From a virus (lineage: Duplodnaviria; Caudoviricetes), in IMG/VR virus record IMGVR_UViG_3300005546_000002, positions 1-64,000 of that record: a stretch of DNA of 64,000 nucleotides. The stretch is one strand, 5' to 3'. Positions 13,464 through 32,911 of the stretch are shown here, piece by piece (positions within the stretch are counted from its first letter, which is position 1; every line of letters begins with the position of its first letter). Below the pieces are notes generated by a model. It was not told the DNA's origin. It did no database searches and worked only from the letters and a program-made list of their open reading frames with translations. A program made the position numbers and the translations under genes.

Positions 13464-14138
13464 TCATTCTTCACCAACAAGATCATCGAATAGGAACGAC
13501 TGACTGAGGCGTTTGATCGTTATATCCAGATACTCCGCACATACATCTATGCCGATGAACTTGCAGCCGTTCTTTCGGGCCATCTTGCCTACGGTTCCGC
13601 TGCCGCACATCGGGTCAAGGATTGTGTCACCGGGATTGCTCCAGCTTTTGATATCACCACGCGACTTTTTCTCCAAAAACCGTTTCTTTACCTGTCCGTG
13701 ATAGATAGTCCGTTCCTGAATTAGATTGATTGTTTTGGGCGCGCCCTTCGAAAAGATGAACATGAACTCAAATGCCGACACATAGCGCACCTTGGTTATT
13801 TGCGGGGTCGGATTAGTCTTATAATAGATCATCGTGTCGTGCAGATTGAACCCGCACGCATCTTTGAAGTACAAAGCCTGTCTAAAACTCGTCCCTGTCT
13901 CGCTTCCATCAACCGTCGCATCGCCCACAATCCAGACAACCACGCCGCCCGGTTTCGTCACGCGATAGAGTTCCTTTGCGATTGTTTCAAAGTCAAACTC
14001 ATAGCCTTGATAGCTTCTGAGGTTATCGTATGGAGGACTTGTTACAGTGAGATCGACTGGCTCAAGATACGGAAGGATTAACTCGGCTCGCCCATGATAG
14101 AGCGTTACCCGCTCGTCGCTGTAGTACGCCTCAGTCAT
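13464..14138 (-). CDS. Beta-class N4-C/N6-A DNA methyltransferase, possibly internally deleted
   Basis: TSPPY and DPMCGSGT present; the usual HPAxFP segment before SNPGD is absent. Confidence 0.8.
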   Translation of the reverse strand: MTEAYYSDERVTLYHGRAELILPYLEPVDLTVTSPPYDNLRSYQGYEFDFETIAKELYRVTKPGGVVVWIVGDATVDGSETGTSFRQALYFKDACGFNLHDTMIYYKTNPTPQITKVRYVSAFEFMFIFSKGAPKTINLIQERTIYHGQVKKRFLEKKSRGDIKSWSNPGDTILDPMCGSGTVGKMARKNGCKFIGIDVCAEYLDITIKRLSQSFLFDDLVGEE

Positions 14139-14771
14139 CTAGTCTTCGCCTCCAACAAGATTACTCATCAGATGCCCGCTTGTTTTAGCATACTCTACCG
14201 GATCACGATCTCCCTTGCTCGAATTACATGACTGACAGACCGCCCGCGTGTTGCGCTTACTATGCTCCCCGCCTCCGTTGTGCGCCTCTGAATGATCCCC
14301 CGTAGCGTAGTCGTCCGCGTTTGAGTCGAACAACTGAAGCCTCTTTGGACAATCCGCGCACTTACCCTTCTGACGAATGAACGCGGCCTCTACCCAAGCT
14401 CTCGGAATAGCCTTCCTCTTTTGCGGACTCGCCAGCACGTTCGACCCGGCCTTCATGAACCGTTTGATCGCAACTGATACGTTCGTTATCCCCTCGCCTT
14501 CGGCCCGTCGCTTCAAGAACGCAAACACATCCTCGTCGTCAATCTCCGTAACCAGCCCCGCCAATCCGACCGCTAGCTGATGCGCCATCCATTCAGCCTC
14601 CGACTTGTCGCTATAAGAGAGCCCGTTGATACCGAAGCTTTGAACGCCTACTTTGAGCCATACGCTAAACGGCTCCTGTTCCGTACCGCATCCAAGGTCT
14701 TCGCCTTTACCCAGTTCCCGGACCTGAGTAAAGTCGCGCTCGATCCGCTCTATCAATTCGTCTTTCGACAT
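14139..14771 (-). CDS. Protein with C-terminal HNH domain
   Basis: CADC...GDH...GG...N...CQSCNSSKG. Confidence 0.8.
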   Translation of the reverse strand: MSKDELIERIERDFTQVRELGKGEDLGCGTEQEPFSVWLKVGVQSFGINGLSYSDKSEAEWMAHQLAVGLAGLVTEIDDEDVFAFLKRRAEGEGITNVSVAIKRFMKAGSNVLASPQKRKAIPRAWVEAAFIRQKGKCADCPKRLQLFDSNADDYATGDHSEAHNGGGEHSKRNTRAVCQSCNSSKGDRDPVEYAKTSGHLMSNLVGGED

Positions 14772-15632: not shown

Positions 15633-16175
15633 TCACGTTGACGTGACTAACTGCTTGAGCTTGAGCTGGTTCAGCCTCTGTTCCGTTGGATTCTCGTTTG
15701 ACCATAGTTCGTGTTCGACAACCTTCTGTATATTCGCGATCTTTGTCCTGCGGCCCCGGATAAAACCCTCCGGCTGATTACTCTGTCGCTCGCGGAACCT
15801 CCGCTGCTGCTCGCCGGGCGATACCGTCAAGATCAGGCAGCGCACGTCCGCGCCAAGCTCCCTCGCCTGTCCGAGAAACGACGCTGTGAACAACCGATCT
15901 CCCTCGAATAAGATGCACCAGTCATCGCGGTTAGAGCGCCGCATCGCCTGTAGGAATTTGATAGTCTCCGGCTGAACGGCCATACTCAGCCGGTCGGTAC
16001 CGGGAAACCGACTGTCGTCGTACACCCCAAGAATTGCCAGCTTTAGACTCTCAAAGACCACGGCCCGAATGAGCCCGCTTCTAATCCTTCTCGATTCGCC
16101 AAGCTCCGCTATCAGCCCGCCGACCAACGTGCTTTTCCCGCTACCGGGCTCTCCGCCGATTGCGATTAAACGCAT
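15633..16175 (-). CDS. P-loop kinase, putative 5-hydroxymethyluracil-DNA kinase
   Basis: IAIGGEPGSGKST Walker A, GTDRLSMAVQP, ILFEGDRLF; last gene of the modification operon; its stop codon lies inside the palindromic repeat. Confidence 0.78.
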   Translation of the reverse strand: MRLIAIGGEPGSGKSTLVGGLIAELGESRRIRSGLIRAVVFESLKLAILGVYDDSRFPGTDRLSMAVQPETIKFLQAMRRSNRDDWCILFEGDRLFTASFLGQARELGADVRCLILTVSPGEQQRRFRERQSNQPEGFIRGRRTKIANIQKVVEHELWSNENPTEQRLNQLKLKQLVTST

Positions 16176-16720
16176 AATGTCCCGTATTTCTCGTAGCGCC
16201 TCATCGAATCCGTTGGGACGAATTCCGGCCTGTCCGTTGCCCATCTCTTTCGCAGAGCGTCGATAGAGGCAGCGCCCAGCATAGACTGGTCGAACACCCA
16301 TTCGTTTTCGGTCTGCGCGACTGCGCGGGCTCCCATCCAATCCCAAAACCCTAGCCCTTCCGGGTTATCCTTGCGACACTTAAATTTGAACCGTTCGGTC
16401 TTCAACGGGTACGCTTTGAGAAGCGCCGCCTCGATCAGATTCTGCGCGAGTCTCTGACCGCGATAAGCCGGATCGACTCCAATGTAGTAGCAGTTGAGAT
16501 ATCGCTTGTTAACGGTGAAGAAATGAAATCCGACTAGAGACTCTAAGCTCGCGCCGCTCTCGGAGACCCGCAGGGCTATCAGCGGGGGAAAGTCATCCCA
16601 GTTCTTCCATCTGCGCCACGTCGCCGCAATAACGTTATCCGACCAGAGCGGGAACGTCCGCGCCAATGCTTCTACCGCTTCCCGCTCGACCAACTGAGCT
16701 GTTCTGATTTCAGTTTTCAT
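16166..16720 (-). CDS. GNAT acetyltransferase
   Basis: Acetyl-CoA binding motif IGVDPAYRGQRLA and N...FW..MG; start overlaps the upstream stop. Confidence 0.85.
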   Translation of the reverse strand: MKTEIRTAQLVEREAVEALARTFPLWSDNVIAATWRRWKNWDDFPPLIALRVSESGASLESLVGFHFFTVNKRYLNCYYIGVDPAYRGQRLAQNLIEAALLKAYPLKTERFKFKCRKDNPEGLGFWDWMGARAVAQTENEWVFDQSMLGAASIDALRKRWATDRPEFVPTDSMRRYEKYGTLCV

Positions 16721-17508
16721 GTAATACCTTTCACGAACTCCAATGCTTGTATAGCCGCTAGTACGCACCCGTTCTTCGCCCCTCCGGTGCTAACCCACAA
16801 GTTCTTTCCGAAAGATTGCAGATACCCGCCCGGAGCAACGTAAGGGCGCATTCCGAAGTTCATCCGAACCGGATTCCGTAGCCCCTGAGTCGCCGCCCGC
16901 TGTAACGTCCTGTCGTTGTAGGCATCGACGTACCTGTGATGAAGTATCGCCGTGCCATCTCCGAACCAAGTTCGGCCATCGCGGGGAAACCAAGTACACT
17001 GCTTGTAAGGCGCGTAGGTTACAATACCCGCCCCCTGCTCCCCGTCGAACTCGAAAGAGGAACCGCACAGCGCTCTCACGGGGGGCATTCTGCGTCCAAC
17101 CAGAGCCCGCGACCACACGCCAGCGGCTATCAAAACAATACCCTCATATACATTCCCCGCCGCCGTCTGGATTCGACCGGGAGACGCCTTCTCTATCCGT
17201 TCTGTCTGCGCACGGTCCTCGCATAGTACCAATTTCGGGTCCAAGACAAATCCTCGCGTCTGAGACTTCGCTGTCTTGAACTCTAAGCTTCGTAGCCCAT
17301 ACAGCCGATCCAGCAACTCCAAACTCTTGTCCGCCCTTTCCCTACCAACGCTGCTCAACCATTCGTCTTTTATCACGCAACCAGCCGCCGACGAGCCGCT
17401 ATACTCCCTCCGGTCATCGAAGACACGAACGGAGAATCCGGCCTCTTCGCAAAGCTTGGCCGCGATAGACCCGAACAGCCCGGCTCCTACTATGAGGATT
17501 TCTTGCAC
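16717..17508 (-). CDS. FAD-dependent oxidoreductase (glycine oxidase/DAO-like)
   Basis: ILIVGAGLFGS Rossmann motif, SSAAG, LIAAGVWS, GMRP, TGGAKNG. Confidence 0.88.
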   Translation of the reverse strand: MQEILIVGAGLFGSIAAKLCEEAGFSVRVFDDRREYSGSSAAGCVIKDEWLSSVGRERADKSLELLDRLYGLRSLEFKTAKSQTRGFVLDPKLVLCEDRAQTERIEKASPGRIQTAAGNVYEGIVLIAAGVWSRALVGRRMPPVRALCGSSFEFDGEQGAGIVTYAPYKQCTWFPRDGRTWFGDGTAILHHRYVDAYNDRTLQRAATQGLRNPVRMNFGMRPYVAPGGYLQSFGKNLWVSTGGAKNGCVLAAIQALEFVKGIT

Positions 17509-18263
17509 ATCAACGCCCCTTGCAAACGGGTAGCCAATGGACCCCTACCCGTTAGGCCGTGAAATATCTCTTTCGTGTCCTTACCCACCGCATAATGACC
17601 GCGCCTATGCGACTTAAACTTGCAGAAGCACGTTTCTATCTCCTGAATGTTCAGCGCCCGGTCGTACCGTGGCGGAGCTTTGCGCGAACCAATCGCATGT
17701 AAGAGCAATTGCACTGTGTCGCTGAAACTCAGGCCGGGCCTACCCCATTCCCTTGCCGCGATCTTCGCCCCCTCCACCGGCTCTTCGTAGACCCCATCCA
17801 GACGACAATCAATAAAACTCACAGATCGAGCCAGCACGCGCTCCAACATATCAGCGACCTTAAAGGTAATCCACGGGCCGAACATGGGCCAAGCTCTGAC
17901 GCGGCTTGCAACTTGCGTAAACGTCCCGTCTCCCAGAGCCTCAATCGCGTTAGCTGCCGTCCCGTAGGTATGCTTGAACCACAGAATCGAATCTCTCGCC
18001 TGAGAAGTCCTGAAGTGTCTGCGCTCCGCCCCTCTAGGCCATTTATTATCGAACGCCCACAGAGCCGTATGAAAGAAGTCCGAAGACTCCGCAATCTGTG
18101 AAGCGACTCCGGCGTGATAAAACCAGAAATAGGCCAGTAGCCATCGGTTCAATAACTCGGGTTCGAGCCCGGCTCTCCATAGCATACAATATACAGGGTC
18201 AAGGTCTTCGGTGTTCAGTAAAGCCAGTGAGAAGGCTTCGATGTTAGGGAGCTGTTCTTTCAT
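17490..18263 (-). CDS. Amino acid:DNA transferase (aGPT-Pplase2 family, HhH-glycosylase-like fold)
   Basis: TEDLDPVY, RWLLAY, PRGAERRHFR, FGPWITFKVADMLERV, QEIETCFCKFKSH..GHY..GKD; start moved to ATG 18263. Confidence 0.82.
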   Translation of the reverse strand: MKEQLPNIEAFSLALLNTEDLDPVYCMLWRAGLEPELLNRWLLAYFWFYHAGVASQIAESSDFFHTALWAFDNKWPRGAERRHFRTSQARDSILWFKHTYGTAANAIEALGDGTFTQVASRVRAWPMFGPWITFKVADMLERVLARSVSFIDCRLDGVYEEPVEGAKIAAREWGRPGLSFSDTVQLLLHAIGSRKAPPRYDRALNIQEIETCFCKFKSHRRGHYAVGKDTKEIFHGLTGRGPLATRLQGALMCKKSS

Positions 18264-18288
18264 TGCGAGATCACGTTGACGTGACTTT

Positions 18289-19140
18289 TCAATAGGCGAA
18301 CAACGAGTCGCCCGCCTTGCGGCTCTTGGCCCGTTCCAGTTCCTCGCCAGCGGAACCGCATTGGAGCATCTTCTGACGATAGTAGAACACGACGCTGATT
18401 CGTTCGTAATCCGGGGAGCCAACGATCTTCGTATTACCATGCCACTCGTGGACATCCGCGAGCAACACGTCCCCGTGTCGCATATCGACCGCCACGCGGT
18501 ATTTAGGGATTACGAAATAGCCGCCCTCGTAGCGTCCCTTCTGAAGCACAGACATAACACCAAAGCCTTCCCGCAGGTCCCCGGCGTCCTGATGAACCGC
18601 AGTCTGCCAGTTTCGATTGATGGTCAGGGTAGTAAACGCTGTTTGAGGAATAACGAAATCCGGGTGCGTGGCATCGGCTCGCTTTTTTTGAACTCCGTAA
18701 CGCTCCGGCAGTTCGCTCGCAAACACTCCGTTGACCGCCCGGATATACTCTAGCGCCTGAGCCCACTTCTCGACCTCAGTCCCGGTGAAAGCCGTCTGGC
18801 GGCAATAGGGATAGCGAGTCGTTCTCTCGAAATACCCGGCTATCGCGCTCGGGGTCGGCGGAGCATAGATCGTATTGCTTACCCTACCGTCCTTACGCAA
18901 GACCCGAAATCTCGTACCGCTCTTAGAGGCTATTGGCCTGTTCTCTAACGCGCTCATCTCCTGTACGCGTTCTTTACCTCCCGCCATTCCCCGATTAGAA
19001 CCCGTGTACTTTGTTGGCAACTCTCTCAAGGATTCATACGCCTGCCCGCACAAGACAGGAGATACACATTTCTTACGGAATTTAACCAGCGGGCTCCCGT
19101 CCGGCTTGAACACGTCCGCAATTAGATGGACGACTTTCAT
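18289..19140 (-). CDS. TET/JBP-family 2OG-Fe(II) dioxygenase
   Basis: YCRQTAF, FTTLTINRNWQTAVHQD (HxD), ADVHEWHGNT (distal His), RISVVFYYR (2OG-binding Arg); start at 19140 overlaps the upstream stop (ATGA). Confidence 0.9.
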   Translation of the reverse strand: MKVVHLIADVFKPDGSPLVKFRKKCVSPVLCGQAYESLRELPTKYTGSNRGMAGGKERVQEMSALENRPIASKSGTRFRVLRKDGRVSNTIYAPPTPSAIAGYFERTTRYPYCRQTAFTGTEVEKWAQALEYIRAVNGVFASELPERYGVQKKRADATHPDFVIPQTAFTTLTINRNWQTAVHQDAGDLREGFGVMSVLQKGRYEGGYFVIPKYRVAVDMRHGDVLLADVHEWHGNTKIVGSPDYERISVVFYYRQKMLQCGSAGEELERAKSRKAGDSLFAY

Positions 19141-19859
19141 AGCCCTGCGACCGCCCGCTTGAGGCATTCAATCACAGTATCGGTAACGCTGGATTTCTCA
19201 TACGCTCTACCAAGCTTCTCAGCGTTAGATTGGAATTCTGGAAGCGTCTCGTTGGTCAAGAATAATTGAACCATTCGAATGTGACTAGCTGGCGGCTCGT
19301 CGGTCTGAGAGTCAGAGCCCGCCCCTCCGCTGTTATTAGCTGCTGTCGTTGCTGTTTGATCGTCTTGCGCGAGCGGGTCTTCGTTGTGGGCGAGAATTAG
19401 TGCTTTCAACGCCTCGTCCTCGAACGATACTGGTAGCGACTCCGGCTCCGTGAATATCTGATACAACCCCTCATCCCAAAGCCGCAACACGTCTTGAGCC
19501 AAGAATGAGCCGCCTCCGAGTGTAAGGTTGTTATGATCCACGGCGTAAGCTTTAGCCTCCGCCTCGCTAACAGCGTCCATCCCAATCAGCGTAGGCACCA
19601 GCCATTCCCCGTCTTCTACTACAATCCCCCTCGGAGCCTCCAAGCCGCGTTCCTTCATTAATCCAAGCGCCTCAGTTCTGCCGTTCCCCTCGGCAATCCC
19701 GATATTCTCATCAATAGCCACAGGATCACGGAATCCATAGCGCTGAATTGCTCGCGCCACCTGTTCGATATCGTGCCGCTTTGCGTTCTGCGCCCACCTA
19801 CTCTTAAGCAACTCGTTCAGCGGTCGGTATACCAGAAGAAGCTGCTGCCGATCTTCCAT
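19137..19859 (-). CDS. ParB N-terminal (ParB/Srx) domain protein
   Basis: NAKRHD..Q....I.RYGFRDPVAID...IAEGNGR (GxxR), A..DHN; acidic linker and small C-terminal domain. Confidence 0.8.
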   Translation of the reverse strand: MEDRQQLLLVYRPLNELLKSRWAQNAKRHDIEQVARAIQRYGFRDPVAIDENIGIAEGNGRTEALGLMKERGLEAPRGIVVEDGEWLVPTLIGMDAVSEAEAKAYAVDHNNLTLGGGSFLAQDVLRLWDEGLYQIFTEPESLPVSFEDEALKALILAHNEDPLAQDDQTATTAANNSGGAGSDSQTDEPPASHIRMVQLFLTNETLPEFQSNAEKLGRAYEKSSVTDTVIECLKRAVAGL

Positions 19860-20031
19860 TCGTTTGGCTCCTGTTCAACCTATCAAGCCTTACATCCAAG
19901 GCGTCGCGCAACGCATCGAGAATCGTCAGATACGGTAGATGCTCCGCCTCTTCTACTGTACCATCAACTCGCTCGATCCTAAGCGGCTGGCGATAATCAA
20001 GGGGAACTGTAATCGTTAACCTCTCGCTCAT
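19804..20031 (-). CDS. Small hypothetical protein
   Basis: Overlaps both neighbours in the operon. Confidence 0.5.
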   Translation of the reverse strand: MSERLTITVPLDYRQPLRIERVDGTVEEAEHLPYLTILDALRDALDVRLDRLNRSQTNGRSAAASSGIPTAERVA

Positions 20032-20291
20032 TTTGTTCGCGGCCTTCCTCGAACCGCAAACCGCTTTGAATCCTTCCTTCCGGTCGGTCTGCCCATGCGC
20101 GGTCTATTGTTCGGGTCTTTCAGTCTCTCTACCTGCGCCCGCAGGAATCTTGGGCGGGCATACCTTCCTTCCTTACCCACGTTCACCAACGAGCCATGCT
20201 TGCACAGATGATCGATATGCGCGGGCGTGCAGCCGATAATTCTCGCTGCTTCCGTCCGTGATACCGTAATCAAACTTGGATTCGTACTCAT
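20028..20291 (-). CDS. Excisionase/MerR-like HTH DNA-binding protein with GRP (AT-hook-like) tail
   Basis: VSRTEAARIIGCTPAHIDHLCKHGSL...RF....VE; MGRP and RGRPR tail. Confidence 0.75.
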   Translation of the reverse strand: MSTNPSLITVSRTEAARIIGCTPAHIDHLCKHGSLVNVGKEGRYARPRFLRAQVERLKDPNNRPRMGRPTGRKDSKRFAVRGRPRTK

Positions 20292-20310
20292 AAAGTCACG
20301 TTGACGTGAC

Positions 20311-20331
20311 GGGACGGCCCGAAGACCGCCC
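20311..20331 (-). terminator. UUCG-capped hairpin after the DUF932 gene
   Basis: Minus strand GGGCGGTC-TTCG-GGCCGTCCC; no clear U tract. Confidence 0.4.
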
Positions 20332-20342
20332 AGTCGCCAATC

Positions 20343-21512
20343 TCAGAAAGCTATCTTCATAAGCTTACCAGAGGCCCGGTCCAGTGCGTTCCGTTGATCC
20401 GCGTAAGCTGTTTCCTGCGACAACCGCGTGAGCCCGTTCACCATCCCGTAAACCGTTCTTGGGCTCCCATCGGTATCACAGTGTTGTTCAGCAAGCTCGT
20501 ATGCTTGCGTTACCCGGCGCTTGGACAACTCCGGGATTTTGGTTTTGACGACCATATCAATCACGGCCTCTTTGCTTGTTCCAAGCTGTTTCTTGCGGGC
20601 CGCGTTGATTTGATTCTGCTCTTCGGCGGCGCTCGCTATCGCATACTGCTTGAGCTTCGCCGGAGCCTCTTGCTCCATTACTCTCCGCACGTCGCCGGTA
20701 TGTCGAATCTTCACTTCCAGCAGATCAGTAACGCCCCAACAAATGTGGTTCCCGCATGTGTGCCGCATCTTAAATCCGGTAAACCACACCGAGCAATCAC
20801 CAACTTCCGACCCGCGCAAGAAGAATCCCCTGATCAACCCGCCCGGACTCCCGTCGTCGATCACGACATCCTCGTTGATCATGAACGCAAACATATCGTG
20901 ATCGCTGGCGTACAGCCCTGCCGGAGCAATCATATCCCCGACCTGAACGGACAACCCAAAGCTCGACCCTCTATCTCTCAACACATCCTCTTCGGTTGCT
21001 ACCCGCGTCCCCGGCTGATTCGCATGAGCCGGACGCGCAGGCGGAACCCTCCACCCCTGTTCATCCCGGAGTCGCATCAGAAACGTTATCATCTCGTGAT
21101 TCCAGACCCTCTGATAGACTTCCGTGGTCAGAGCCCGGAGAATCAACTGTCCGTTCTCATGGAACAACAGGTTAGCCCGGTGTCCGTCGCTACCCCGCTT
21201 CGCCAGTCCGTGATTCAAGTTCTGCGCGGCCAACGTTGTTGGTAACTCCCGGAGATAAGCAGCCGGAGCCTTTACTCGCTCGCTCAACTGCCCGAAAGCG
21301 TAATGAGTCAGCCGCGCCGGAATTCCTTCCCGACCGACCAACTGAATATCCTGTCCGACCGCTTCGACCCGAAGCGTCTGAAACGATACCTCTGCCTCGC
21401 GAGCCCGTTCAGCATAAGCAGCCGTCGCTGCATACATTTCTTCAAGACTCGCAAATCGCTCATCCGAGGGGCGAGTAGCCCACTGATGAGAAGCCTGATA
21501 TAGATTCACCAT
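20343..21512 (-). CDS. DUF932-family phage/plasmid protein
   Basis: WATRPSDERF, GLYASDHDMFAF, RGFF...SEVG, CGNH..WG, IRH, NGLTRLSQ; SD GAGGGAG before ATG 21512. Confidence 0.7.
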   Translation of the reverse strand: MVNLYQASHQWATRPSDERFASLEEMYAATAAYAERAREAEVSFQTLRVEAVGQDIQLVGREGIPARLTHYAFGQLSERVKAPAAYLRELPTTLAAQNLNHGLAKRGSDGHRANLLFHENGQLILRALTTEVYQRVWNHEMITFLMRLRDEQGWRVPPARPAHANQPGTRVATEEDVLRDRGSSFGLSVQVGDMIAPAGLYASDHDMFAFMINEDVVIDDGSPGGLIRGFFLRGSEVGDCSVWFTGFKMRHTCGNHICWGVTDLLEVKIRHTGDVRRVMEQEAPAKLKQYAIASAAEEQNQINAARKKQLGTSKEAVIDMVVKTKIPELSKRRVTQAYELAEQHCDTDGSPRTVYGMVNGLTRLSQETAYADQRNALDRASGKLMKIAF

Positions 21513-21756: not shown

Positions 21757-22062
21757 TACCGTCACGTTGACGTGACTTTTCCACGGTACGACCGGGCGGA
21801 CGCTTTTACGCGCCTCTTCGCTCCACTTCTCATCCTGCGCCTCGCGCACCCTCTCCAACTGATCCTCGTCCAAAGACTCTGAACCCTCTCCGGTTACGGA
21901 GCGGGCTTGATATACGATACCCAAGATATCCCCCGCGATCTTTCTGGCGACCGCAGTAACAGCCGCGTTATCAACGTCCGTAAGAGCCGGGAACTCTAGA
22001 AGAAGATTCTCCGCGAAGTTCTGTAGCTGTTTTAGTGCTTCGCCGTCTGTAAGCATAGTCAT
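21742..22062 (-). CDS. Hypothetical protein
   Basis: Coupled to the upstream gene; its 3' end contains the repeat (SHVNVT). Confidence 0.55.
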   Translation of the reverse strand: MTMLTDGEALKQLQNFAENLLLEFPALTDVDNAAVTAVARKIAGDILGIVYQARSVTGEGSESLDEDQLERVREAQDEKWSEEARKSVRPVVPWKSHVNVTVNKNS

Positions 22063-31537: not shown

Positions 31538-32911
31538 TTACTCCCCTTCCGGCGCGTCGTTCATAAACAACGAGCGGTCGTCTTCCAAGTTCTCAAACCG
31601 ATCTTCGGATTTGATATAGACCAAACCGAATTGCCCCGGAGGTCCGTTGCGCTGTTTGGCAACAAACGCCTTTGTGATATTCTCTTCGCCTCTCTTTGGT
31701 TTCCTGTCTCGCCAGAGGAAAACAACTACGTCCGCATGCCTCTCAACATCCGCCGATTCTGCCAAGTCCGGTAATCGAGGACGCTGGTCGCTCGAAGAAC
31801 GAGTCTCCGGCGCTCTACTTAGCTGATGCAATAGCACCATTGAGATATCAAGTTCGCGCGCAAGCTCTTTTAACTGCCAAGCGTTCTCTCCTATAGCATC
31901 GCGCTTATCAGTAAAACCAGAAGGGAATCGAAACAGCGTAAGATAGTCAGCGAACGCTACATCTAACCCGTATTTCATTTTATGCCGACGACACATTGCT
32001 CGGAATTCAGCTACACCAATCCCCGGCTTGTCGCACATCGCGTAACGCATGCCCCACTGATCGAACGAGCGAAGCGCTCCGTAAACCGCCCCTTGATCGT
32101 ACTGACCACTTCGCATCCGAAACGTATCAACCGGCCCTTCTTTTCCAAGATTTTTAGCGGCCAATCGCTTCCCCGGAGCCTCGCCACACCATATTATCAG
32201 ATTCTCCTTCCCGCGCTTCGCGATATTATGCGCCATATTAGTCATCAAAGTTGTTTTTCCTATAGAGACGCGAGCAGCAATCACAGTCAATTCTTGCCGT
32301 TGCAATCCCAACGTGCGCCCGTCGAACCCGTAGTAACCCGTTGCTATTCCGGTGATCCGATCTCCGCTGTCCCGCGCAAGATTCGCCTCATATATTGCTT
32401 CTTCTGCGTAATGCAAGAGCGGCTTGGGCTCCGCTAGATCGGGCTCCGTCATCGCCAAGCTGCTCATCCTTGCCTCTGCCTTACTTCCCAACTCAGGATC
32501 GTCCGGGTCTTCAAAGTTCTCAGCTATAATCTGGTTCGCCGCCGTAATCCTCTTCCGGGCCTGCGACCGCCGCTTGATTACCTTACAATACGGCTCAATA
32601 AAATCCGTGGCCGGAACTCCGTCTATTAACTTAGAGATGTACGTCGCACCGCCAATTTGCTCAAACTCCCCGCGCTTACGCAACTCGTCCTCAAGCGACG
32701 TTAACTCAATAGGAATCCCATGCTCGAATAACCATATCGACGCGTCGTAAATCCGGCGATGAGAGTCAAGAAAGAAGTCGTCTCGCGCAAGCAGCGCCTT
32801 AGCCTCTTCGCAGACCTCGTTTCGAAGCAACAGCGCTCCTAGTACCGCCCGCTCCATATCAGGCGCAGCGGGCAAACCTTTGTCAAAAAAGGGATCATCG
32901 CTATGCGCCAT
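31538..32911 (-). CDS. dnaB: Replicative DNA helicase DnaB
   Basis: ERAVLGALL N-domain, ITGIATGY, IAARVSIGKT, DYL, LKELAREL, QLSR, RPRLPDLAESADVERHAD, KQRNGP. Confidence 0.95.
   Translation of the reverse strand: MAHSDDPFFDKGLPAAPDMERAVLGALLLRNEVCEEAKALLARDDFFLDSHRRIYDASIWLFEHGIPIELTSLEDELRKRGEFEQIGGATYISKLIDGVPATDFIEPYCKVIKRRSQARKRITAANQIIAENFEDPDDPELGSKAEARMSSLAMTEPDLAEPKPLLHYAEEAIYEANLARDSGDRITGIATGYYGFDGRTLGLQRQELTVIAARVSIGKTTLMTNMAHNIAKRGKENLIIWCGEAPGKRLAAKNLGKEGPVDTFRMRSGQYDQGAVYGALRSFDQWGMRYAMCDKPGIGVAEFRAMCRRHKMKYGLDVAFADYLTLFRFPSGFTDKRDAIGENAWQLKELARELDISMVLLHQLSRAPETRSSSDQRPRLPDLAESADVERHADVVVFLWRDRKPKRGEENITKAFVAKQRNGPPGQFGLVYIKSEDRFENLEDDRSLFMNDAPEGE

Follow-up and report, generated by a model that had tools for sequence, protein, structure and literature searches.

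A probable ParB-dependent, dioxygenase-started operon for post-replicative thymine hypermodification in a tailed-phage genome

A 64,000-nucleotide stretch of viral DNA, here called the window, carries six minus-strand genes between positions 15633 and 19859 that probably specify a ParB-dependent, dioxygenase-started pathway for post-replicative thymine hypermodification. In this pathway a front end of the type described by O'Toole et al. (PNAS 2026, PMC13229309) would be joined to a back end of the type known from Pseudomonas phage PaMx11. The window is the first 64 kb of the 95,866-bp virus record IMGVR_UViG_3300005546_000002, which has direct terminal repeats and is rated 100% complete; all positions given below are those of the window unless another sequence is named.

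All steps of the proposed pathway are placed on polymerised phage DNA. The TET/JBP dioxygenase, acting with its cognate ParB-like protein, would hydroxylate the 5-methyl group in some thymines, selected in a sequence-dependent manner, and so yield 5-hydroxymethyluracil (5hmU), which the P-loop kinase would convert to 5-phosphomethyl-deoxyuridine (5-phosphomethyl-dU). The conserved cysteine of the amino acid:DNA transferase (AADT) would then attack C6, the phosphate would be expelled, and glycine would be joined via its amino group. The flavoenzyme would oxidise the N-C-alpha bond, releasing glyoxylate and leaving 5-aminomethyl-dU, and the GNAT acetyltransferase would acetylate the amine to yield 5-acetylaminomethyl-dU. 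The original prediction, made from the DNA letters of the window, had proposed the same series of reactions, and the gene order is in keeping with it. We consider the mechanism well supported because homologues of PaMx11 gp46 and gp47 with their catalytic residues kept are present, and because neither a nucleotide-level route to 5hmU nor a C5-cytosine methyltransferase (C5-MTase) is found in the genome.

Six genes form one translationally coupled operon

The six minus-strand open reading frames (ORFs) that had been assigned to 15633-19859 were all confirmed in place, and family searches of each ORF agree with the identities first proposed for them (ParB-like protein, TET/JBP dioxygenase, AADT, flavin enzyme, GNAT and P-loop kinase). 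Four starts were moved downstream of the longest-ORF starts on the basis of homology to relatives and of the junction sequences. With these corrections the operon encodes, along the minus strand, a ParB-like protein of 240 aa (19137-19859), a dioxygenase of 283 aa from the ATG at 19140 (18289-19140), a transferase of 257 aa from the ATG at 18263 (17490-18263), a FAD-dependent lyase of 263 aa (16717-17508), a GNAT of 184 aa from the ATG at 16720 (16166-16720) and a kinase of 180 aa from the ATG at 16175 (15633-16175). An AGGAG lies 9 nt ahead of the ParB ATG. The dioxygenase starts in an ATGA overlap on the ParB stop, a 25-nt spacer separates dioxygenase from transferase, the transferase and lyase genes overlap by 19 nt, the GNAT starts in an ATGA overlap on the lyase stop, and the GNAT and kinase genes overlap by 10 nt. 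Since every junction is an ATGA, a short overlap or the 25-nt spacer, the six genes make up one translationally coupled operon. The operon as a whole gave no blastn match among cultured phages.

The back half resembles the PaMx11 pathway

The chemistry of PaMx11 gp46-gp49 has been reconstituted (Lee et al. 2021, PMC8989533): the kinase produces 5-phosphomethyl-dU, gp46 makes N-alpha-glycinylthymidine (315 u), gp47 converts this to 5-aminomethyl-dU (257 u), and gp48 gives 5-acetylaminomethyl-dU (299 u). The transferase of the present operon matches the Pfam family ADDT (PF18724) at E 6e-12 and the PDB entry 8z2m, which is the PaMx11 glycinyltransferase gp46 (PUGT), at E 9e-43. Its nearest cultured homologues belong to PaMx11/Ab18 and M6-type phages, with 38% identity to gp46, and it keeps counterparts of gp46 Asp24, Tyr47, Tyr51, Glu92, Trp146, Lys150, Glu243, Thr244, Cys247, Lys261, Asp262 and Glu265. 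In gp46, Cys247 is the nucleophile, and the Glu and Thr hold a metal bound to uracil O4 (Wen et al. 2024). By this homology the transferase is predicted to swap the phosphate of 5-phosphomethyl-dU for the amino group of glycine.

The flavoenzyme matches Pfam DAO and NAD_binding_8 and, over its full length, the "flavin-dependent lyase" of PDB 8z2o/8z79, which is PaMx11 gp47 (NGTO), at E 3e-34. It retains GxGxxG as well as counterparts of gp47 Trp51, Tyr180, Gln182, Arg242, Tyr244 and Lys268, and does not retain the gp47 DNA-backbone contacts Phe52, Lys202 and Arg210. Arg242 of gp47 has been proposed to bind the glycine carboxylate (Wen et al. 2024). The predicted reaction, again from the relationship to gp47, is cleavage of N-alpha-glycinylthymidine to 5-aminomethyl-dU and glyoxylate.

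The GNAT matches Pfam Acetyltransf_1 at E 6.5e-6, belongs with PaMx11 gp48 to PHROG 1249 and occupies the same place as gp48, between lyase and kinase. Comparison with the gp48 family by hhalign gave 97% probability (E 8e-11), which shows the fold only, and a tblastn search of cultured phages with the GNAT returned no match. N-acetylation of 5-aminomethyl-dU is its predicted role. The kinase matches AAA_33 at 29.9 bits, above the cut-off, and belongs with the PaMx11 5-hydroxymethyl-dU (5-hmdU) kinase gp49 (5-HMUDK) to PHROG 800. A profile of its type aligned with that of the gp49 family at 98.2% probability (E 2.7e-14, 124 columns; profile-profile, hhalign), and it is a predicted 5-hmdU DNA kinase. 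Kinases of cassettes with the composition ParB-TET-GATase-GNAT-AADT-kinase share 38% identity with it. This kinase family (PHROG 800, PaMx11 gp49 in NC_028770) is found mislabelled as "terminase small subunit" or "adenylate kinase".

The front half pairs a dioxygenase with a ParB-like protein

The dioxygenase matches Tet_JBP (PF12851) at E 4e-24, above the Pfam cut-off, and PHROG 24024 at E 1e-65. Its HxD..H..R motif was described as intact at the outset, and this holds in the family alignment, where H183, D185, H231/H234 and R247, the iron and 2-oxoglutarate ligands, sit in invariant columns. An AlphaFold 2 (AF2) model of an intact 311-aa allele of the enzyme, described further below, has a predicted local distance difference test score (pLDDT) of 95.9 and a predicted template-modelling score (pTM) of 0.92, and its best Foldseek matches are NgTET1, CcTet and human TET2 (E 1e-12 to 1e-13). 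A PDB sequence search with the dioxygenase found no match, and the likeness to TET proteins comes from the fold search alone. Both the alignment and the model show a 22-residue extension with a helix after the invariant last cysteine, a feature reported solely for ParB-dependent 5mYOXs (O'Toole et al. 2026, PMC13229309). The enzyme is likened to 5mYOX176 and clade C1 through their published description rather than by alignment with 5mYOX176, and is predicted to oxidise T to 5hmU. Phage TET/JBP dioxygenases are also found mislabelled, as "SNF2 DNA repair protein", "DnaJ chaperone" or "queuine tRNA-ribosyltransferase".

The protein encoded directly ahead of the dioxygenase matches PHROG 620, "ParB-like partition protein", at E 9.5e-13; no part of it, the C-terminal domain included, matched Pfam even at E 1. 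Its N-terminal ParB/Srx-type domain spans residues ~1-118 and bears the motifs NxKxHD, GNGRxEAL and DHNN. In the AF2 model this domain is of high confidence (mean pLDDT of the whole protein, 73.5), and residues 160-189 are disordered and link it to a small C-terminal domain of helices at 190-240. The best Foldseek matches of the model all have the ParB/Srx fold (PadC, Myxococcus xanthus ParB, pNOB8 ParB-N and Noc) and are marginal, at E 4e-3 to 3e-2. Phage enzymes of clades C1 and C2 oxidise T to 5hmU, and one subclass requires ParB on double-stranded DNA (O'Toole et al., PNAS 2026, PMC13229309). By analogy with that subclass, the ParB-like gene is unlikely to be a bystander, and its product is predicted to activate the dioxygenase on double-stranded DNA.

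The C-terminal domain of the ParB-like protein (about residues 185-240, encoded by 19140-19307) reads as a strand followed by two helices and is 38% identical over 61 residues to gp17 of Pelagibacter phage HTVC112P. Structure matches to CopG/RHH_1 clusters are weak (template-modelling score about 0.6 on 45-50 residues). More distant members of this ParB family end instead in a CxxC...GHxF zinc-ribbon-like tail.

The genome lacks recognisable enzymes for nucleotide-level 5hmU or 5-methylcytosine

Two alternatives place the starting point of the pathway elsewhere: the dioxygenase might act on 5-methylcytosine (5mC), or 5hmU might be made at the nucleotide level. Both make predictions about the rest of the genome, for which a scan for a dUMP hydroxymethylase or a C5-MTase had been set beforehand as a check. 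Six-frame hidden Markov model (HMM) searches of the complete 95,866-bp genome found no thymidylate-synthase-like gene (PF00303), ThyX (PF02511), C5-MTase (PF00145), dCMP deaminase, HD protein (PF01966) or DNA polymerase of family A, B or C (PolA, PolB, PolIII-alpha), and a Tet_JBP search of the same genome recovered the dioxygenase as a positive control. PaMx11 gp50, gp51 (the hydroxymethylase) and gp52 likewise found nothing significant in the complete genome by tblastn. The statement that the operon and window contain neither a thymidylate-synthase-like gene nor a C5-MTase can therefore be extended to the genome as a whole. A DnaB-type helicase gene is present at 31538-32911, so the phage probably uses the host polymerase and the ordinary dTTP pool. 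No tRNA was found in the window, and many ORFs of the genome, large ones included, are without a Pfam match.

An unrecognised phage enzyme that makes 5hmU as a nucleotide, leaving the dioxygenase some other role, is in our view very improbable. The many ORFs without a family match leave room for such an enzyme, but none of the thymidylate-synthase-like, ThyX, dCMP deaminase or HD genes is present, the searches turned up no phage DNA polymerase that could have become adapted to 5hmdUTP, and the gp50, hydroxymethylase and HD protein that accompany the lyase together in almost all of ~60 loci of the nucleotide-level type are absent here.

We give as little credence to the idea that the dioxygenase acts on 5mC from the host or from an unrecognised enzyme, which would make the cassette a modifier of cytosine. 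Phage TET/JBP enzymes of clades A and B act on 5mC, and 5mYOX97 and 5mYOX176 do so partly in vitro (O'Toole et al. 2026, PMC13229309). In the present case, however, the complete genome has no C5-MTase, the downstream enzymes retain the ligands of the O4-bound metal and have homologues whose substrates contain the uracil ring, and the ParB partner and C-terminal extension are typical of the subclass that acts on T. The original prediction also held that characterised phage TETs usually pair with a C5-MTase. This is outdated: the ParB-dependent subclass is associated with kinases, AADTs and GATases, while a C5-MTase occurs in 6% of mined pathways (O'Toole et al. 2026, PMC13229309).

A deletion in the dioxygenase and distant homologies bear on activity and product

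Several observations weigh against the proposed pathway, some of them touching its end product and others whether it runs here. The chemistry of each step is inferred from homologues, as are the use of glycine and the identity of the acetyl acceptor, and the glycine specificity assigned to the transferase would be that of its nearest homologues. BLASTP shows little similarity between the GNAT and gp48, no more than is expected of any two GNATs. The kinase is distant from gp49 by BLASTP, and its match to Ploopntkinase3 (24.8 bits) falls under the Pfam cut-off of 27. A pathway that runs to a different base, through another amino acid or amine used by the transferase or another acyl group or acceptor used by the GNAT, is nevertheless unlikely. 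Table 1 of Lee et al. (2021, PMC8989533) lists AADT members that use glycine, serine, putrescine or glutamate, the transferase shares no more than 38% identity with gp46, the GNAT is very divergent from gp48, and related ParB-TET-AADT-FAD-kinase cassettes are without a GNAT. Set against this, glycine is the substrate of the two nearest characterised homologues of the transferase (PaMx11 gp46 and M6 gp51); Asp24, Trp146 and Lys150, which contact it, are retained; and a gp47-type lyase with the carboxylate-binding Arg directly follows the transferase. Moreover, oxidative N-C-alpha cleavage yields 5-aminomethyl-dU from any N-alpha-linked amino acid.

The remaining points concern the dioxygenase, which in the present genome carries an in-frame 84-bp deletion with its junction between 19120 and 19119. 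The missing segment codes for 28 residues (about residues 8-35 of the 311-aa allele) with the motif L.G..LD....D.L...ED, which is retained in all aligned homologues, the shortest ones included. In the model of the 311-aa allele the segment folds into a helix and a strand (pLDDT 98). The present dioxygenase is therefore not a full-length enzyme with the conserved N-terminal region. In assigning the gene, the first analysis was right about the catalytic residues and overlooked the absence of these 28 residues. An N-terminally truncated homologue, 5mYOX118, showed no activity, with a truncation that is larger (O'Toole et al. 2026, PMC13229309). Because a conserved piece of the enzyme has been lost, the activity of the pathway in the present genome is uncertain, and it may be weakened or off.

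Only three events separate L003, a 6,066-bp IMG/VR contig, from the window. The first is the 84-bp segment itself, near the 5' end of the dioxygenase gene, which is present in L003 (L003 2115-2198) and missing in the window. The second is a pair of extra bases in L003 (L003 2744-2745; window ~18575) just past the HxD motif, which break the frame, and the third is a single substitution in the kinase, where residue 70 is Glu in the window, as in the family consensus, and Gly in L003. Both indels between the two haplotypes thus fall in the dioxygenase gene. In the protein collection the 283-aa deletion allele occurs on two contigs, the longest of 95,937 bp, the intact 311-aa allele (P0001, P0278) on two ~1-kb contigs from different sources, and the frameshifted dioxygenase as two halves.

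These observations raise the alternative that the cassette is off or decaying here: the deletion would disable the dioxygenase, no 5hmU would be formed, the downstream enzymes would be left without substrate, and unmodified T would be packaged. We rate this as possible though somewhat unlikely. The deletion removes a motif common to all aligned homologues together with confidently modelled structural elements, and the near-identical L003 bears an independent 2-bp frameshift past HxD in the same gene, so that both indels among three differences over 6,066 shared bases fall on the dioxygenase. In addition, the deletion allele is the one on the full-length genome and the 95,937-bp contig, the intact allele being confined to its two short contigs. 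On the other hand, the in-frame deletion spares every catalytic residue as well as the variable insert and the C-terminal extension. The two haplotypes share 99-100% identity in the remaining five genes, all of them intact, and the 2-bp insertion of L003 could be an assembly or sequencing error. Two indels in the gene that starts the pathway may reflect relaxed or reversed selection on the modification and may in part be assembly error; the three dioxygenase alleles may reflect selection that switches modification off where hosts carry modification-dependent nucleases. In any case, the alternative concerns the state of the pathway in this genome and does not conflict with the design proposed above, that of a dioxygenase-started pathway ending in 5-acetylaminomethyl-dU. 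The natural allelic series also offers a ready structure-function test of the conserved N-terminal motif.

A genome-wide near-palindromic repeat has copies in and around the operon

A 14-bp near-palindrome, TCACGTYRACGTGA, occurs 27 times in the window (2662-61627) against 0.01 copies expected, and about 36 times in the genome; its centre (TG or CA) orients each copy. Four copies lie near the operon. The copy at 15633-15646 overlaps the kinase stop codon, that at 18271-18284 makes up most of the 25-nt spacer between dioxygenase and transferase, and that at 20296-20309 is upstream of the operon, so that these three bracket or interrupt it; the fourth, at 21762-21775, is just upstream of a promoter-like site at 21745-21717. 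One scheme would have ParB loaded at TCACGTYRACGTGA through its ribbon-helix-helix-like C-domain, confining T oxidation and hypermodification to phage DNA. We consider this highly doubtful. If true, such addressing would let a post-replicative pathway tell self from host.

We also considered whether phages with a ParB-dioxygenase pair generally carry a repeated palindrome. Neither the complete HTVC112P genome nor any of five partial ParB-TET relatives has an over-represented 12-mer or palindrome, and since these phages have no comparable repeat, a general link between ParB and palindrome is unsupported.

Related loci reveal several cassette compositions

A scan of IMG/VR with a dioxygenase profile recovered 90 related loci. 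ParB lies directly ahead of the dioxygenase in 87 of them. Kinases (48/90) and AADTs (46/90) are its commonest neighbours after that, followed by GATases (31/90), GNATs (15/90) and gp47-type lyases (8/90); a thymidylate-synthase homologue was found near the dioxygenase in none of the 90. When the lyase was used instead, a scan with the single protein found solely the near-identical L003, and a profile scan found ~60 loci, almost all with gp50, hydroxymethylase and HD protein together. The lyase scans thus suggested that the dioxygenase-lyase combination is unique, an idea rejected on account of the lyase in 8 of the 90 dioxygenase loci.

Five of these eight loci (L140, L150, L151, L154 and L159) are tight ParB-TET-AADT-FAD-kinase cassettes, and two more (L102 and L105) have these genes in another order. 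The five-gene cassettes are too compact to hold a GNAT gene between those of lyase and kinase, and their expected end product is 5-aminomethyl-dU. The commonest relatives, at 31/90, are arranged ParB-TET-GATase-(GNAT)-AADT-kinase (L005-L011, L108, L114, L121, L122, L127 and others). In these, a GATase supplying ammonia to the transferase, with a GNAT acting afterwards, could give acetylaminomethyl-uracil by a shorter route.

The transferase of the present operon is nearer to the PaMx11 type than to the transferases of ParB-TET-GATase-GNAT-AADT-kinase cassettes. Judged by these sequence relationships the cassette looks mosaic, with ParB, dioxygenase and kinase like those of the common GATase cassettes and with a PaMx11-like transferase and lyase. 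When L014, a cassette of the hydroxymethylase type, was compared with the window (L014 1-3760 against 16729-21368), a DUF932 gene was found shortly upstream of transferase and lyase in both, 30-49% identical by tblastx. It may mark a shared ancestral locus that now differs between the two in the 5hmU-supply module alone.

About 0.9 kb downstream of the kinase, an HNH endonuclease gene (14139-14771, minus strand) abuts an N6/N4 DNA methyltransferase gene (13464-14138, minus strand). Both gene types are often found near phage 5mYOX genes (O'Toole et al. 2026, PMC13229309).

Significance and comparison with known systems

Because a pathway that starts from ordinary T needs no change in the nucleotide pool and no special polymerase, cassettes of this kind can move between phages as self-contained anti-restriction modules. 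The products of most dioxygenase-started cassettes are unknown. Here, unlike in those cases, the product 5-acetylaminomethyl-dU is predictable and can be checked by mass, since two of the downstream enzymes are close to solved and characterised proteins. Lee et al. 2021, Wen et al. 2024 and O'Toole et al. 2026 do not report rebuilding such a pathway all the way from T to the final hypermodified base. The value of the present cassette lies mainly in giving a clearly defined case for testing; it adds an example and leaves the picture of the field unchanged.

A pathway type in which T oxidation comes first is already published, having been predicted by Lee et al. (2021) and followed by the demonstration of phage T-dioxygenases by O'Toole et al. 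(2026). Sequences 22-25 in Fig. 2 of Lee et al. (2021, PMC8989533) are virome contigs with TET_JBP in place of the dUMP hydroxymethylase beside T-hypermodification genes. The reasoning there is the same as ours, namely that with no hydroxymethylase or 5mC source the T would be oxidised in situ as the point of entry. A ParB-TET-AADT-kinase system has also been annotated in like terms in a Rhodococcus phage announcement.

With the clade C1 clusters of O'Toole et al. (5mYOX176/ParB176) the present locus shares a translationally coupled ParB gene directly upstream of the dioxygenase, a C-terminal extension of the dioxygenase, the lack of a C5-MTase, and a kinase and AADT downstream. The present ParB-like protein may also follow the domain plan of the ParB proteins in these clusters, a nucleotide-binding-type domain at the N-terminus and a C-terminal domain in which no helix-turn-helix is obvious; its structure matches are marginal, and those of its C-domain are weak and ribbon-helix-helix-like. 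The locus differs from these clusters in its PaMx11-type lyase and GNAT, the commoner set being GATase-(GNAT)-AADT-kinase (31/90, against 8/90 with a lyase), and in the 28 conserved N-terminal residues missing from the present dioxygenase allele.

The closest cultured relative of the dioxygenase, at 46% identity, is that of Pelagibacter phage HTVC112P (gp17-gp19, MN698246). HTVC112P has the same ParB-dioxygenase pair, with the N-terminal motif, the C-terminal extension and a similar ParB C-domain, but there the pair is followed by an FkbM-type methyltransferase, and the transferase, lyase, GNAT and kinase are missing, so that its chemistry is different. GenBank labels HTVC112P gp18 as a DnaJ/SNF2-type protein.

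In PaMx11 the genes run gp46 (transferase), gp47 (lyase), gp48 (acetyltransferase), gp49 (kinase), gp50, gp51 (hydroxymethylase) and an HD protein. The four enzyme types thus occur in identical order in both phages, and the predicted product is the same. In PaMx11, however, 5hmU is made before replication by gp51, a thymidylate-synthase-like dUMP hydroxymethylase, with gp50 and the HD protein. These three are absent here, where ParB and the dioxygenase lie at the opposite end of the cassette instead. The GNAT and kinase are furthermore remote from gp48 and gp49, the kinase being nearer to those of dioxygenase-type cassettes. The locus works like the post-replicative half of the PaMx11 pathway and is not a member of the whole system.

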